64,000 bases of DNA from Octopus vulgaris (taxonomy: Eukaryota). Below, in pieces: positions 6,134 to 43,500 of this stretch. The translations under genes and the position numbers were made by a program. Location: the NCBI GenBank assembly GCA_951406725.2, contig OX597821.1, positions 47,306,001 through 47,370,000 of the forward strand, read 5' to 3'. Position 1 is the stretch's first letter. The number at the start of each line of letters is the position of its first letter. The notes beneath the pieces are model-generated. The model was not told where the DNA came from and ran no database searches. It saw nothing but the letters and a program-made list of their open reading frames with translations.

Positions 6134-8109
6134 CACAGTGAAATAACCAATTTTCCTTTAAGCACACTTGGGTATTCCTTTGCTGATTAATTGATATTTG
6201 AAAATTGAAAAATAAACTCCTAGACTGTTTCTTTGAACTCAGAATTGTGTAAAATAGATAACATCAAAATATTCATTTAAAAATTTTTCGAATATTACAA
6301 ATCATTTATCAAATTTCTTTTCTTTTTTTTTTAATTGGTGCTATCTATTTCAGCACAAGGATATTCAAAATGTAGGGAGGGGGATATATATAGTAATAAT
6401 ATTGGATTGTATACTAATAATGTGAGTGATACATAAAGTTATATATTAGTTAATTTCAAGAACAAAAGTTTTCTTCATAAATAGATATTCCATGATAGAA
6501 ACCAATAAATATAATAGTCAATATGAGAATGCAGAAATTAAGCTAAATAACTGCTCTTGTTGCCATAATAATTAAGATGCTATAAGAATTAATGAACAAA
6601 AGATTCTAACTCAGCAAAAAAAAAAAAAAAATTGCATTTTTTTTCTTTTTTCTTGTTTTTGTTATCCAAAATAGATTCTATATCTATACAAATTTTTACA
6701 AATAATTCTTAGATTGTTGCAGAGAAAGCAAGGAAAAAAACCAAATTACTGAATTCGTGTAGCATCATTGTAGGTGTAGGAATATTCTTATATAGATACT
6801 GCATTATTGGAATGTCACTGGTGTAGTGAAAGGAATAATAATAATGAGTTTATTGTATACAGTGCTCACATGCACTACAATAGCAGAAAATATGTAAAAT
6901 TATTAAAAGAGGGAGCAAAGAAAGAATGACAGAAACAGTTTTACCCTCCAAAGGAAAAAAAATTACTTTTATAATGGGAACCTATAGAAAAATGGTAGAT
7001 GATATGTAGGTATAATAAATGTTAGACTTTAAATTAAAATAAAAGAATCTGATAGAAATTAAGAATCAAAACATGATAAATATGCTGGACAATCATAATG
7101 GCACACCTGTTGAGTTCGATGTTAATTTCAATCTCTGTTACGAATATATTACAGCAAGATTATCTAAGTTTGATAAAAGCACTCACTTATTAAAGACAAC
7201 ATCATTGCTCATCCAATTTTTGGGGATTGTTTCTATGGCACTTTTTATAATCTCAGAAACTATCCACAATTCAACTCAACTCATCAATGGGACAAACCAG
7301 TTTTCAGTGTTGGAGACTATCATATAGATACTACCATTACAAAACACTGAGGTAGTCTTTGATAGCAAAGAAAATAAGGAATATGAATGCTATATTTAAA
7401 ACAAAAAAAATTGCTAAATAAATATTTGCCAATCAAAAAAGACAACAGAGGAAAATTTATGGTATTTTAAAGTGTACTAAAATAATTCCCCAGTATAAAT
7501 TTCAAAGATAGTGATCATCAAAATTAAAGAATTACATTTAAATTTTGAAGGAAAATGACCAAGGTACAATGAGAAGGGATGGATTTTAATCATATCCTGC
7601 TACCAATTTCCTAACTGCTATGAAATAGACAGACTGAATAATATTTAAGCTAGCAATATAATAGAAGCATTAGTAAAAAGTAGCAGAAAGGTTAAAAGAT
7701 AAATACTAAACTAAGATGGTTCAAAGAAGATATTGTTGCATTTAGTGTGTAAACATTCAGACAGAGAAATGAACAGATGAAAAAGAAATAGTAAAAGACA
7801 GCTTCCATATGTCACATTCATATCTTTCTCTTGAGAGTCTGTCTATTGTGTTCTCTGTCCATATGCCCAAGGAAGACAGACACAAAATATTTACAAGACA
7901 AACATAATTACCTTGAACATGTCAAGTTTGTGACTCTCTCTACACACATACTATATATATATTAATAGTAATGGTAAGACAACAAAAGAATGAATGAGAC
8001 CTTGATATTATGTAAATAGAGGAATTTAACTGTAATATATGTGACAATTATTTGGTTGTCATAATAAGACTCTGGACCATTAAACGGTCATTTTCATAGC
8101 AATTTTTGA

Positions 8110-8184
8110 TTGCCTCAATAACTGATGAGATGCCGGACCAATTTTCCACCCCAAAATCCGAAACTCGGAGTCTTATTATGGCAA
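8110..8184 (+). ncRNA. Type I minimal hammerhead ribozyme motif (PLE-associated)
   Basis: TTGCCtcAATAA-CTGATGA-GAT..ATCc-GAAA-CTCGGAG-TC|TTATTatGGCAA. Intact core, stem I AATAA/TTATT plus TTGCC/GGCAA, near-palindromic stem III ACTCgGAGT, GUC site at 8170-8172. Confidence 0.75.
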
Positions 8185-8212
8185 CCGAATAACTGTCACA
8201 TATTATATGCAC

Positions 8213-8262
<50 letters not shown>

Positions 8263-8278
8263 ATACACACATGTATAA

Positions 8279-8335
<57 letters not shown>

Positions 8336-8349
8336 CACGCACACACACA

Positions 8350-8394
<45 letters not shown>

Positions 8395-8407
8395 AATATA
8401 TACACAT

Positions 8408-8459
<52 letters not shown>

Positions 8460-8487
8460 GTGCATATAATATGTGACAGTTATTCGG

Positions 8488-8553
8488 TTGCCATAATAAG
8501 ACTCCGAGTTTCGGATTTTGAAAATTGGTCCGGCATCTCATCAGTATAGGCAA
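8488..8553 (-). ncRNA. Inverted second copy of the hammerhead motif, sense to the PLXDC transcript
   Basis: Minus strand TTGCCTATA-CTGATGA-GATGCCGGACCAATTTTCAAAATCC-GAAA-CTCGGAGTC|TTATTATGGCAA. Core intact; the stem I 5' strand has a small deletion. Confidence 0.6.
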
Positions 8554-8613
8554 TCAAAAATTGCTATGAAAATGACCGTTTAATGGTCAAGTCTTATTAT
8601 GACAACCAAATAA

Positions 8614-8645
<32 letters not shown>

Positions 8646-10289
8646 AATATATACACATACACACATATATACATACAATGAGCTTCTTTTGGTTTCCATC
8701 AATCAAGTCTACTCACAAGACTTTAGTCAGCCCAGAGCTATAACTGAAGACATTGCCCAAGGTGTAACCAGTGAGAATGAACTCAAGAACACTATTTGGG
8801 AAGCAATCTTCTTATAATACAGGCATGCCTGCATCAATATAGACATATCTGTTTAACTCTGTGTGTGTGTGTGAGTGTAGTAACATTACTGGATAGCTCA
8901 TATTCAAAATGAAATGAGATTTCCTAACAATAAAGGAGAAACTCTAAAATACATTTTCATTTCAGCGAACATTTACATCTCATCTCTGTTAAAAGTTTAT
9001 CATTAATTATGTATCATAGTTTTCTCAAAGTTTACAAATACATACGTTTTTGCATCAAAAAAATCCTAAAGAAGGGAAGATCAACATTGTTTTTAATTCT
9101 AAAATATAATTAAATTATTTGTTTTCTTAGCTTTAGTAAACAGAAACCTAATGCTTGCAATGCCAAACACACTGAAAACAAAAGAAATACAAAGCTTATT
9201 AGAAAAACAAAATATAAATGAAGATTAGACTGCAGCTAAGAGTTCTAATGTTGGTTTTAAATAGTAAACAAATATTAAGTAGAGAATTATTGAAGAAGAA
9301 AACAGTTTAAATGGATGTTTCATGGTTTAGGTTTAGAATTTTTGTGCCATTTAATAAAACCAGATATTTTTATAACTACGAAACATTGATGAAATTTTTG
9401 CTATATCTCAATGTAATGTTGAAAAAAGAAAACCTTGCAAATTATGAAGCAAAAACAAAAAGATCCCTGTCATCATTCAATAAGACATCAAATTGAAATG
9501 CAATAATGCAAATAAAAAAAGAAACATATTGCAGTGTTAAAAAGAAGAAAATCCAAGGCAAATATTACATAATTAGTGAGTAACTAACAAGGAAATGATT
9601 AATTATACAACAAAAACTGAAAATATCAATAATGAGTCATAACAAAGTGAGTGATATTTTAAGTTTGGAAACCAAATAAAAGACTTGTATGATAATGCTA
9701 GAGTCCACATTAGCAATTATAACAGATTCAACCTCCACCAAAACATAATTATACAGAAAGCAATCCCAGAATAACTGAAAATAAAATAAAATATCAAGTA
9801 GAAAAAAAAGCATAAAACAGATTTTTATTTTATTTTTCTTTCTTATCTTATGTTTTTTCACTTTTTTTTTTTGTTTGTTTGTAATATATCACCAGGATAT
9901 TGGATGAGTTGGACAATATGAATTATCACTATAACTTTATAGATTCTGATTAGCAAATTAAAAATAAGAACAAAACAACAATATTAAAAAAAATATTTCA
10001 TTACTTAACATGAAAACTAACTACATAACAATTTAATTCAGAAAGCTCAGAAACAAAAAAGAAATTAAAATAAAATTTTTTACAAATAAAAGAAACAAAA
10101 TCATTAACAAGAAAAATAATCCAAATTTAACAAAGCAATCAAAACTTCTTTTCACTAACAAAACACAACATGCATATGCAAACAAGCATGTGTGTGTGTG
10201 CATACACACAAATATATAGGTAAGCACACACAGACATATACATACTGCTATTCAATATCAATACTGCTTCCATCACAAATATTTTTACA

Positions 10290-11951: not shown

Positions 11952-12276
11952 TATAATCACAATATGTTTGTCCCATATTTCAACTACTAAAGCCAAATAT
12001 ACAGCAGTTACTGCAGAGAAAACATTCTCTCACGGTGAAAACATCCCATTCATTCAGTGTTGCCCACTCTCAGGAGTCTATGACATTAATGCTCCCAGTT
12101 TGATCAACAAGGATCAACAAACTTGAAACATCGAAGACTCTTACTCCAAAGAGAGGGTGACACTGAAGAAATGGAGAGTTTTCACACCTTTTCATTGTAA
12201 GGTAACTGCAGTGTATTTACCTTTAGCAGTTGAAATACTTGACAAACATATTTCAACTAACCTAAATTGTGATATA
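11952..12276. repeat. Imperfect ~325-nt hairpin (inverted repeat) in the proximal 3' UTR
   Basis: AATATGTTTGTC..TATTTCAACT.CTAAAG..AAATA.AC.GCAGTTAC (11961-12011) pairs with 12202-12252. GTGAAAAC..CCATT..TTCAGTGT..CCC.CTCT (12035-12070) pairs with 12150-12185. Confidence 0.8.
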
Positions 12277-13895: not shown

Positions 13896-14014
13896 CTCCA
13901 TTAGCCACATTCCAAGCTGCGATGTTGGGTGACTGTAACCATAGTAACACCAAGCTCCCAAAGCAATACACAAAATTAAAACTATAACAACAGCAATAAT
14001 TGCTGCTACTGGAA
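13896..14014 (-). CDS. PLXDC2: PLXDC exon: transmembrane helix and HPTS juxtamembrane motif
   Basis: Polypyrimidine tract, then ttctag|(x)TT PVAAIIAVVIVLILCIALGAWCYYGYSHPTSQLGMWLME|gtaggt; phase 1 to 0. Matches the family motif Y.Y.HPTS....F.IE. Confidence 0.92.
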
Positions 14015-29247: not shown

Positions 29248-29453
29248 TATATGCACACACACATATACATACACACATATATACATACACACATACAAAT
29301 ATATATATATATACATATATATCTATATCCGTATCTATTTATACATATATACACACACACATATATATACACATATACAAATATATATACATATACATAC
29401 ACAAATATATATATATATAGGGGTCATTTTCATAGCATTTTTTCCAATGGACG

Positions 29454-29515
29454 GATAACTGAATAGATGGCGGCGTGGATTTCAAACCTCGGCATCCGAA
29501 GCTCAGAGTTTTATC
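29454..29515 (+). ncRNA. Decayed hammerhead motif homologous to 8110-8184
   Basis: 29421-29545 aligns with 8085-8205: GATAA-CTGAATA-GATGgCG..CGGCATCc-GAAG-CTCAGAG-TT|TTATC. The core is mutated but the stems are retained. Confidence 0.6.
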
Positions 29516-29547
29516 ATGGCTACCGAATAATTGTCAAATATTACATT

Positions 29548-39000: not shown

Positions 39001-39489
39001 ACTCTCAGCCTATCATATTAAATATGAAACCCATTTGTCAGACAGGCTGACTTATGTACATTAACAGTAGTACAAGACATTATTTTATACACTACATAGT
39101 CTCTACAGCCGTTGTATTGTGTTTTAGTACTTCTGAAAGGACTGTTTCAGAGAATATATTCCACAGAAACAAGTTCTTTGATGTCAACCCTTTCAAATAA
39201 ATAACAATTTGCAGTTTACCTAACTAAGTTTAAAGACTGCATCCTCTAAGGTAATTTGAAACAATGGTAATTGGCAAAACTACAGCAATTTGTTTGCTGG
39301 ATTGACAGAATTGGAGAACTAATTGATTTCTTATGATATTTAGTTGTGTCTTTTAGTGTTCTGAGTTCAAAAGCAGCAGGAGGTTGAGTAATTCAGATAT
39401 CAAAGGACCTTTCATTAACTAGTTATGCATGCTATACATTTGATAAAAACATTTAACTATGAGAGATGTACTATCTCAGAGATACTACT

Positions 39490-42400
39490 CTCTACAATGC
39501 AAGGTACTACTGTCTAAAGAAAGAAACAGCACAAGCAACTTAACAGGACCTTCTGTCCAGTGTTGTGGGACACTGGACGGTATCATCATGCCACTCCAGG
39601 AGCCGTGTTGTAAGCCGATGAACCTGTCCTTGTTAACGTTTGCCCCTGCCACCACCTCGTATCCTTTGATTGCATCTTCTACACAAGGTAGCTGAGCTAC
39701 ATTGGACACAGTGATGGTGACGTCGTCAGCATATGCAGAAACAGACTTACCACATCCGGTTTCATTGGGGATGCCCTCCAAACTCTCCAACCTCTGCAGC
39801 AATGGCTCAAGAATCAGTACATACAGAAGCAGAGACCAAGCGCTTGATCTCAAACTGCTCTGACAAATATCCTATCTAAATAAGATCTGTGTGAACTGTC
39901 GTTATTAATCCACATCCACTGTGGAATGAGCGGCTCATCCAGTCTACAATGGTCTACTAGGTTATAGCTTCCTAGTATTTCTCCTTCTATTGGTTGAGCC
40001 AACACTATACACCCATGCGTCAAGAACAGTGTTAAAGTCTCCAACTAAAACTAGAGTTTTTTGACATTACCAAAAAACTGTTTATTTGGACTGTGGGTTT
40101 GATGCCCCACCTTTACCGGGTACTTTTACCCACCCTGTCTAAGGTGTAACATAAGAGATGAAGATTGTCTTGGATTGACCTACCTGGAATGGCACATGTC
40201 TGAACCCTCCCTACAAGTTTCTCCATAACATGTGTCAACCTTTTTACTAACACCTTGGCGAAGATCTTTAACTCTACATTGAATAGAGTTATGGGCCTAA
40301 AGGTACTAATACGAGCTCCCTTGCTCGGGTCTTTTCTGATCAGCGTCACCACTCTCTGACTCACAGAACTAGGAATCCTCCCATTCGGCTGCCAGTTTGT
40401 GTAGACGCAGGCCAGCAAGTGTCTGAACAAATCTGGTATGCTACGATAAAATTCATAGTGGAGACCATCCAACCCCGGCGACTTGTCCCCAGCACATTCA
40501 GCCAGCACCTCCTTGACTTCCACAGCTGTAATCGACCCTTCACAACAGTCTGTCTCCCGTGCCAAGAGTTGTGGCCTGCCGGGAAGGAAGTCCTTTAGGG
40601 ACTCCCCATGGTCCAGCAACCTGCTCCCCCCAAACAATCGGGCGAAATGTTGGTGAAAAGCCTTTTGCTCATCAATCAAAAACTTTATAGAGGCTTTTCT
40701 GCCTCTCCTGCTCTCCACATGACGTGCCCATTCGGCAACATTAATACCTTCTCTACTCATTGCATGTAACCTAGCCCTGACTCTACATCCTTCGTGTTTG
40801 GCTTTGAAATGACAGAAGGAAACCACTCTCACTGCCATCATTCTGGATGAAGAGCCAGATTCCATAGCCTCTTCTAATTCCTTAATTAGATACCCTTCTA
40901 TTCTTGACTTCTCTAAACTTAGCTTGTTACTAAACCTAAGAGACTCAGAACGAATGGCTCGCTTGAGGGTGCACCACCATCTATTATTAATGATGGTGCC
41001 ACATAATGCCATCTGCACTAACTCCTTAACCTGGATACGGAAGACTTTACAAGTCAAAACAGACTTGTTCATCTTCCTGTACCCTGGTCCCTGTCTATGA
41101 CACTTAACACATCACAAATTTGTGAGCCATGTAAAGGACACAACAAAAGCGTGGACAACTAAATGTTTTCCTATCTCTTTCTCTAACAAATATCCTATCT
41201 AAATAAGATCTGTGTGAACTGTCGTTATTAATCCACATCCACTGTGGAATGAGTGGCTCATCCAGTCTACAATGGTCTACTAGGTTATAGCTTCCTAGTA
41301 TTTCCCCTTCTATTGGTTGAGCCAACACTATACACCCATGCGCCAAGAACAGTGTTAAAGTCTCCAACTAAAACTAGAGTTTTTGACGTCACCAAAAAGC
41401 TCTCCAGGTCTTGAAAAAACCAGCTTGTCTACACTCTTTAGGAGCATAGACCACTATCAACCTGAAGGACTGCTTACTTGCATGTGTCACATCTAGGATG
41501 ACTAGCCTAACTTCTGGGTCCAGAAGGACTGTACTTTCCTGTACATCCAAGCTTTTCCTGAACAACACCACCATGCCCTCGCCTCCCAATCGACTAGGAG
41601 AAATGAATTTCTCATAGCCATTTAGAAGAGTTGAGAACGCCTGTAGCCCATTCAACTTGGACTCAGTCACCACACATACATCTATTTCTAGTGACCTGAG
41701 GTCATCGAGGAGACAAGTTTGCTTCCATCTCGACCCCAGGCTACAAACATTTATACACCCTAACTTAATCTCCATGGTGAAAATAAAGAAACTTACATTT
41801 CAAGTTTGGGGAGGGGCTGCACGAATTCACCAACCTCCCACTCTGTTCCTTTCTGAGGTGTAGCTACTGGTGTAGCTGCTGGGCTAAGCCCAAGTCTTTT
41901 GTTGGCCATCTCTTGGCTAACATCTTGTATGTACTGCAGGTATCTCACTTTAGATTGTTCAAATAGGTCTGCTTCTTTCCTTGATGGCCGGCCGTATATT
42001 TGGAGGCATATTTTGTATTGGCTGAAGAATATATGATTTATGATGCACAGTTAATACTCTCGCTAGAAACTCATTTTTCTCATTGTACTTCACAATCCTT
42101 TCTCCAAGTGCTTTTTTTTTTAGGGGTGGGGGTTGGTGTTGGGTTTCGACTTGGGGATGGACTGGGGAGTTTTTCTGTGAGCTTGCATTTTGTGTAGATG
42201 TTTTCTTTGTCAGGAAAGGGGAGTCTGGGACACGGGCTTTCTTTCTTTTATGTGAAGTTACTGTCTAAATTCCATTTCCTCTTCGGCTTCCTTCTGTTGT
42301 GCTTTTTCTACGTTTTGTTTGTTCCTTTCTCCTGCTTTTCCTGTGACGCTTTCAAACACTTTCTTGTTCCTTTCTTTTTGGGGAGGGACTTCAGTCTTTT

Positions 42401-43500
42401 TTTGTTGTTTTTTATTTTTTCGCAATCCAACCGGACGTGCCCTTTTTCTCCACATTTAAAACATTGGGTCTACGTCCTTCGTCTAATACTCTTGCATTCA
42501 GTCCCTCCCCTATAAAAATGCGGTCTGGCCTCGATTCAAGCACGTCATTTGAGGCTTGAACCACCATCTCAAGTGTTTGGCTTTTCCAGTTTAGAGTGTC
42601 TTTCTTTTTCATCTGGAGTATTGTTATCTCCTCCTCTGCATCGTAAATTACAGCCGCCACCATCTACGTTATGTCGTAACCAGCTGGTATAGCCTCTATA
42701 GTTATTTTTGCAGTTCTCCGGCCTAGGTAGGTTGGGAGCAAAATTACTTCTTCATTTTTAATGTTTGGGTGGTTACTTCCTTTGCTGTTTTAGCGTTCTC
42801 AAATTGTGCCTCAACAGTGGCGCTTCTTGCTCCTTGACTGACATAGGTGATTTTTCCCCCAAATGGGGGTGAGGCACTTTTCTACCACCTCGTTCTTCAC
42901 CGACATAATTCTTTTCTCTTTCCAGTTATATATCTTATAGACTATCATTCTGGCAGTTAAGTTTTGTAACATATTCTGTGGTGGCAACAGTTTTGTTTCA
43001 TTGCCACTTTTTAAAATAAGGTTTCTAAACTTAAATAGTTGTTCCTTGGACACCTCCAATTCACAAAAGTTACCACCAACAGCAGTAGAGAAACTGGGTT
43101 TTTTCTTTTCTTCCTGATTAGAAACTTGGTTATTTCCTTTCATTGCTGGGAAGTCCTCGTTTGAGTACAGAAAGTCAATATTTGAAAATAGGTTTAATTC
43201 CATTTTTACAAATGGCCTCTGTATTCCAGAAAGAAGCGTAGATATTTTTTGTCAAAATGACAGAATTTTTTTTTTTTTTTAACCTTGCAACGGGTACAAA
43301 ACAGTCCAACAAGTTGTGCAAAAACAATTTTCCGCCCCATAGGGCGAACATTTTTGTCAATGATGACAACCGTTCAATTTCAACAGGAGCTCAAATGTAA
43401 CAATTTCAACAAATAATCAACAACAAAAAAACATTAACCAAATAAACTCACAAAGCAACAGCAGCTGAACGCAGAAGAGTGACAACCACCGGTTGGCGAT
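39490..43500 (-). mobile_element. Tx1/L1-clade LINE, decayed and 3'-truncated: ORF1 with CCHC knuckle; ORF2 with APE endonuclease and RT
   Basis: ORF1 pieces from 43203 include CFKCGEKGHVRLDC (~42421-42466). ORF2 from 41775 has INVCSL..VTESKL..VYAP, LVGDFN, YLDRIFV, KSPGLDGL..EFY, FRPITLFNVELKIFAKVL, GRSIQDNLHL and SAYADDVTI. Frameshifts throughout. Confidence 0.92.

Follow-up and report, generated by a model that had tools for sequence, protein, structure and literature searches.

Penelope-like elements of the Hydra clade are the closest described relatives of the sequence studied here. They are EN+ elements with a C-terminal endonuclease, show RWK, DKT, CxCX5C, CxxC and CxH features, insert at (TA)n and carry canonical hammerheads (PMC8557442); the supplement of that paper includes an octopus member, Hydra-1_Obim, and lists Hydra hammerheads with a stem III of ACTC-G-GAGT (File S2), and the same source describes insertions of Penelope-like elements as often accompanied by inverted copies. 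With regard to activity, hammerheads with a short stem III cleave poorly as monomers (PMC7229834), and a lizard Penelope hammerhead was reported not to cleave in vitro without the element's protein, the RNA-seq reads having no ends at the site (PMC11167929). In addition, an inverted repeat together with a direct repeat is one outcome of the four-point template-switch model (PMC5453318), and young repeats are the main targets of A-to-I editing in metazoans (PMC9989829).

We analysed a 64,000-nucleotide stretch of the Octopus vulgaris assembly (contig OX597821.1, positions 47,306,001 to 47,370,000; hereafter the window), for which an initial annotation had described a hammerhead-bearing segment duplicated in inverted orientation across a palindromic microsatellite. 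The inverted duplication is real in the assembly, since self-alignment matches positions 8047–8212 to 8614–8460 over 166 columns at 92.8% identity (E 3e-65). A 21-nt word spanning a junction within the arms is found at exactly two places in the 2.8-Gb genome, one in each arm, and the inverted pair is therefore not due to chance. The spacer (8204–8459) is indeed a microsatellite, a compound of (TG), (TA), (TC), (GA) and (CA) tracts, although it is palindromic in part only; it is the insertion target and the likely template-switch point, and its first part (8204–8240) recurs in mirror image where the right arm begins.

Both arms contain a CUGAUGA-G...C-GAAA-C core, a GUC site and a stem III of ACU(CGG)AGU, which in each case amounts to 3 bp with the self-complementary sequence ACUCGGAGU. 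In the left arm, family alignment places stem I from 8110, CUGAUGA at 8122–8128, GAAA at 8160–8163, stem III at 8163–8171 and the cleavage site after 8172, all on the plus strand. For the minus-strand copy (8553–8488), the intact core, the site at 8500/8499 and a weakened stem I had all been annotated correctly, the last being short of 3 nt. What had gone unreported is that stem II is damaged in both arms, which carry 9 substitutions relative to the family majority, and that the right arm has lost 6 further nt; in this arm, stem II and the part of stem I beside the core are disrupted. At gathering thresholds, an Rfam search of the whole window returned no family that reached its gathering score. 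The type I core (CUGANGA, GAAA and NUH) is present in both arms and in 22 of the 27 family copies described below, so that an intact core at this locus is no sign of selection. Among these copies the three helices are paired in 94.3% of cells, as opposed to 21–54% when slid, and covariation is weak (12 of 500 shuffles were as high), as expected for copies ageing neutrally.

When the left arm was used to search the octopus genome, 2,290 first-look candidates were returned; 40 of these were scored, and the best other copies among them were approx. 90% identical. Similarity among the family copies extends further upstream and, downstream, into a tail ending in TA tracts; our counts leave out L002, L028 and L031 as duplicates of L001, L013 and L014 respectively. 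In four of the 27 loci (L005, L012, L014 and L024), a piece of an RT/GIY-YIG ORF is found within 1.5 kb upstream in the same orientation, and two further loci have ORF pieces in other positions. At L032 the order is ORF remnant, 3′ UTR, hammerhead and tail, which puts the hammerhead near the 3′ end and downstream of the ORF, the latter matching at 76% over amino acids 174–680. The window copy itself has no ORF, and no Penelope-like ORF was found near it within the window; its subfamily is linked to the ORF through L032 and the four loci listed above. A related subfamily element, L035, has a 717-amino-acid ORF with RWK, DKT, YKDD, CxCX5C (CSCRNKELC), CxxC (CGLC) and CxH (CPH) motifs and a C-terminal IIYEA...YVGLT of the GIY-YIG type. 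Pfam and PDB searches with this ORF gave no significant match, and the clade placement consequently uses ORF motifs and by-eye comparison with published proteins rather than an RT tree. On this sequence evidence, we identify the motif as the 3′ end of a Hydra-clade Penelope-like retrotransposon, and the element as a new family member of that known clade, in a family distinct from Hydra-1_Obim. The Naiad clade, octopus members of which are annotated 'HHR_half_core', was excluded on the strength of the linked ORF, whose endonuclease is C-terminal and whose motifs are of the Hydra type.

Further copies of such elements were met in the course of these searches. A genome search with a Hydra RT fragment gave 11,285 first-look candidates, many of them equal-scoring, with several 717-amino-acid open frames and frequent inverted or tandem pairs, and the Hydra-type family looks recently active. 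The young-looking subfamily with the intact 717-amino-acid ORF keeps stems I–III with changes on both sides relative to the subfamily in the window, and at L035 (2700–2790), as well as L036, L042, L043, L046 and L047, CUGANGA is replaced by CCGANGA and stem III is preceded by UGAA, a core variant in apparently mobile copies. The window also holds an older copy of the element, 74% identical and with a broken core, at 29422–29546 in an intron of the PLXDC2-like gene described below.

The left side of the locus is itself composite. It opens with a third piece, unnoticed in the initial annotation, which is an inverted copy of the element's post-ribozyme tail (7953–8072, minus strand). This piece starts a few bases before the cleavage site, ends in (TA)n, matches family sequence downstream of the hammerhead (approx. 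80% identity to the tails of Hydra elements with an intact ORF) and is the 5′ inverted piece typical of Penelope-like insertions; the same layout is found at L014 and L022. It meets the forward stub at a private inversion junction (8073–8082, plus strand), the site of the 21-nt word, and this is followed by the 5′-truncated 3′ end of the element with its type I hammerhead (8083–8203, plus strand), which lies antisense to the host mRNA and was assigned from the genome search, the family alignment and the RT/GIY-YIG linkage. Being antisense, this hammerhead cannot act as a ribozyme on the mRNA strand. The left arm has its own 36-bp hairpin, in which 8037–8072 pairs with 8168–8203. A TA-rich tract ends the tail of the copy in the window and of most of the family copies viewed. 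The junction is bridged by contigs in organism A (run X1) and in organism B (runs X13 and X18), and the insertion is thus older than their split.

5′ truncation with an inverted 5′ piece is shared with 12 of the 27 other loci, where the inverted partner stands head-to-head, whereas a tail-to-tail partner was found in none of the 27. The pair in the window is tail-to-tail and is therefore not the element's own inversion. The right arm (8460–8612, minus strand) repeats 8047–8212 in reverse, including the private junction, all 9 private substitutions and the flanking microsatellite, and it is bracketed by a 62-nt direct repeat (8363–8424 and 8614–8675, plus strand, 61 of 62 nt identical). The arms differ by four or five deletion events, 11 nt in total and all on the right arm, while the only mismatch lies at the microsatellite edge and no substitution is found elsewhere. 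Given the copied junction, the direct repeat and the deletion-only differences, we take the right arm to be secondary to the left. At position 8059 the family letter C is present in X1 and X13 but T in both assembly arms, consistent with copying that followed a recent substitution; editing is an alternative explanation.

The right arm is uncorroborated in other samples. A second arm is expected to branch the 31-mer graph at 8075 (as assembled) or at 8047 (if perfect), and single unbranched contigs cross both points in X13 (6700–8202), X1 (7996–8185) and X18 (8045–8112), the last with a depth of 50.8 against 50.7 in the flank and ending where family copies join. Unbroken contigs from three runs point to a right arm that is either a young or rare allele or an artefact. 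Our own reading of them is that it is absent in organism B and probably absent in one organism A sample, bearing in mind that contig graphs are cleaned and may drop a branch, and that the sole bridging contig from organism A (X1) comes from a run guessed to be RNA, where the arm of a hairpin could be depleted. As indirect evidence, the organism B contigs (one DNA run and one guessed to be RNA) carry the antisense arm unbranched, and the sense arm was not found to be conserved. Three further observations were not counted as evidence, namely zero depth in bin 8556–8671 in X1 and X13, zero depth at 97% likeness in bin 8589–8619 in four of four DNA-size runs, and zero depth in bin 8527–8588 in X2 and X10, with a loose end at 8577 in X11 and X18 that indicates a different copy of the family; about 80 in 100 of X2 and 76 in 100 of X11 were read, and the filter drops records. 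X2, X10 and X11 each have one flank-site difference from the window, so that none is evidently the assembled individual, and none of the runs compared is identified as coming from it.

The nature of the differences between the arms is also unusual. Family copies depart from their majority by 160 substitutions and 5 indels, and at this ratio the chance of four of four events being indels is about 1e-6, which places the deletion-only divergence of the right arm far from ordinary ageing. Four or five deletions without a substitution in 150 nt are hard to explain by ordinary mutation and hence favour the view that these letters, at least, originate in sequencing; base-calling errors in an otherwise perfect copy may account for the 11 deleted bases. 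A systematic deletion error in all palindromes of the assembly was considered and rejected, as none was seen in 20 other self-matches or in a set of 19. Elsewhere in the same assembly, L020 (2031–2427) contains a perfect 165-bp inverted repeat of a different repeat family, with a 49-nt spacer and TA-tract ends.

The minus-strand gene that had been proposed upstream of the repeat is a PLXDC2-like gene. Its exons at 63.4, 60.2, 57.5, 13.9 and 12.7 kb match plexin domain-containing protein 2 on the minus strand. The transmembrane exon (13896–14014) has 72% identity to residues 480–504 of P0003, a plexin domain-containing protein 2-like sequence, with AG/GT ends in phase, and the last coding exon (12773–12675, stop codon 12677–12675) has 85% identity to the C-terminus of the same protein. 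P0001, a database protein identical to the gene, ends before the transmembrane exon, whereas exons for both the transmembrane and the cytoplasmic part, matching P0003, are present in the window; the P0001 gene model is therefore probably truncated. A 3′ UTR that reaches the sense hammerhead, 4.1 kb beyond the stop codon, had been put forward, and it is plausible. The label 'RNA?', a guess, is attached to 13 of the 24 runs listed, none being on record as RNA, and 12 of these 13 contain 0.73–0.89 of the words in 6700–10170. As the contig sets of the runs guessed to be RNA are small (44–141 million letters against a 2.8-Gb genome), this repeated cover suggests transcription. The stretch 6700–10170 is a likely distal 3′ UTR, covered on both sides of the repeat by unstranded contigs of these small runs; those of X13 run from 6700 to 8202 and from 8680 to 10170, at depths of 112 on the downstream and 42 on the upstream side, contig depth being unable to show RNA level. 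By eye, 11966–12013 and 12207–12240, inside the putative 3′ UTR, resemble the inverted ends of a small non-autonomous DNA transposon, and on the minus strand at 39485–43251 there is a decayed LINE-like element with endonuclease-like and RT frames (RVT_1, E 2e-05).

Folding was modelled at equilibrium, leaving out tertiary contacts, magnesium, kinetics and co-transcriptional order. With the core held open, the right arm pays 12.5 kcal/mol for the hammerhead fold when only stem III is imposed and 21 kcal/mol when all core-adjacent pairs are, against 9.2–13.6 kcal/mol for the left arm and 7.9–11.7 kcal/mol for two family-like copies, and on the basis of this difference we predict almost no activity of the sense hammerhead, with or without the masking arm. 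For five motifs folded without constraint, the z-scores lay between −0.7 and −1.8, none of them significant. When both arms were folded together, the sense motif was paired to the other arm with a mean probability of 0.97; approx. 300 nt lie between the motif and its complement, which we estimate, from general transcription rates, at seconds of transcription. The likely outcome in a carrier transcript would be a long RNA hairpin, an ordinary editing substrate, rather than cleavage. In contigs of runs guessed to be RNA, T>C changes are found at 8059 (X1 and X13) and at 8062 (X13), equivalent to A>G on the minus strand and lying inside the 36-bp hairpin. These letters restore or match those in family copies or DNA contigs, and the two changes in the hairpin of this fixed insertion could be A-to-I sites or alleles; 8059 faces a C.

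Taking these data together, we favour, at slightly better than even confidence, a truncated Hydra-clade element lying antisense 4.1 kb behind the PLXDC2-like stop codon, with the mirror arm a much later local copy, rare in or private to the sequenced haplotype and expected to form a hairpin rather than to cut. The first step was insertion of the element into a (TA)n tract, giving an inverted tail followed by a 5′-truncated forward stub (7953–8203), and this layout is seen also in a related organism. The self-complementary (TA)n tract may then have been the site of a double template switch that copied 8047–8240 backwards, with synthesis resuming 62 nt upstream to leave one inverted and one direct repeat. 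If a UTR carries this allele, the sense hammerhead, damaged in stems I and II, would be sequestered some 300 nt of transcription later into a duplex of approx. 155 bp, an ordinary ADAR substrate and no switch. The main competitor, clearly the lesser possibility but one to be taken seriously, is that the right arm (about 8425–8675) is an artefact of assembly or of long reads, produced by a fold-back read that was stitched in at the microsatellite, and that the true locus is the antisense stub without a sense hammerhead. The differences between the arms, one-sided, deletion-only and mostly in short runs, would be accounted for in this way, as would their improbability at the family ratio and the unbroken contigs of the three runs; the second arm of inverted duplicates is known to lose bases in nanopore reads (PMC7229812), which bears on the present case only if the assembly is nanopore-based. 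Two precise junctions with a return to the forward strand go beyond what we would expect of a simple fold-back read, however, and the unique part of the 165-bp palindrome at L020 is error-free in the same assembly.

It is improbable that all three pieces arose in one Penelope-type integration as a complex tandem and inverted insertion. Inverted copies are frequent in such insertions (PMC8557442) and at 12 of the 27 family loci, but these partners are head-to-head and never tail-to-tail, the right arm contains flanking microsatellite together with all the later substitutions of the left arm, and the non-branching contigs of organism B (X13 and X18) suggest a left arm without a right one. The least probable account of all is the one originally advanced, namely a self-masking 3′ UTR ribozyme whose cleavage, in competition with hairpin formation and A-to-I editing, tunes the level of PLXDC2 mRNA. 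Its core is intact, it would be transcribed first on the minus strand and the region is likely to be transcribed; however, the X13 contig argues against the arm in that sample, the sense arm was not found to be conserved, stems I and II are damaged, and published data also speak against it, short-stem-III monomers being poor cleavers (PMC7229834) and the Penelope hammerhead tested in vitro being inert without the element's protein, with RNA-seq reads that did not end at the site (PMC11167929). A working regulatory switch is unlikely; the model requires an arm that is not only real but also transcribed, active and of consequence. The repeat to which the motif belongs is mobile and present in thousands of copies, its fixed older copy here runs antisense, and the sense copy is young or artefactual with a disfavoured fold; the alternative offered at the outset, a neutral fold-back, fits, and our verdict is a known element with a neutral or artefactual fold-back.

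If the favoured explanation, the truncated antisense element with a later local mirror copy, is true, its consequence is slight, this being one among thousands of Penelope-like stubs. It is very improbable, but of greater interest, that a real and still-segregating template-switch allele flipped a transposon hammerhead into sense in the octopus PLXDC2 3′ UTR and made a hairpin of approx. 155 bp in the same step. Were this so, carriers and non-carriers would offer a natural allelic test of how a ribozyme plus dsRNA comes to exist in an mRNA, the choice between masking and cleavage falling to editing, and the locus would be a rare snapshot of catalytic RNA entering an mRNA by one mutation, in a lineage with heavy A-to-I editing. 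As the arm on which this story depends comes from one assembly, mirror-image ribozyme pairs in assemblies need read-level checks.

Hammerheads in the 3′ UTRs of rodent Clec2 genes are conserved, active and discontinuous type III motifs. They resemble the present case in having a core in a 3′ UTR (here putative) that could lower mRNA level, whereas the motif in the window is a transposon relic whose sense orientation is unconserved. Animal non-LTR retrozymes (PMC7229834; bioRxiv 10.64898/2026.07.22.740005) likewise have a type I hammerhead in a non-coding, Penelope-derived repeat, but the window has no tandem units over the arms and one hammerhead per strand, and in the absence of two hammerheads on the same strand no monomer or circle can be excised. 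The short-range template-switch mutations described in PMC5453318 also produce a nearby reverse-complement copy with a direct repeat, while the piece copied here happens to hold a ribozyme and carries unexplained deletions. With regard to dsRNA edited by ADAR at inverted repeats (PMC9989829), the predicted duplex of approx. 155 bp would be a substrate of the same kind. The closest likeness is to Hydra-1_Obim and the Hydra clade (PMC8557442), with which the element shares a type I hammerhead near the 3′ end, a stem III of the form ACTC-G-GAGT, insertion into (TA)n, and 5′ truncation accompanied by an inverted 5′ piece, together with the peptide YRKPNDRL and a linked ORF with RWK, DKT, CxCX5C, CxxC and CxH. 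In contrast, stems II and III are not those of the hammerhead given for Hydra-1_Obim, stem II being long in the window family with an extra base before GAA, and the ORFs differ by eye; the insertion pattern described for the clade in that source is one without a tail-to-tail second arm, and such an arm is present at this locus.
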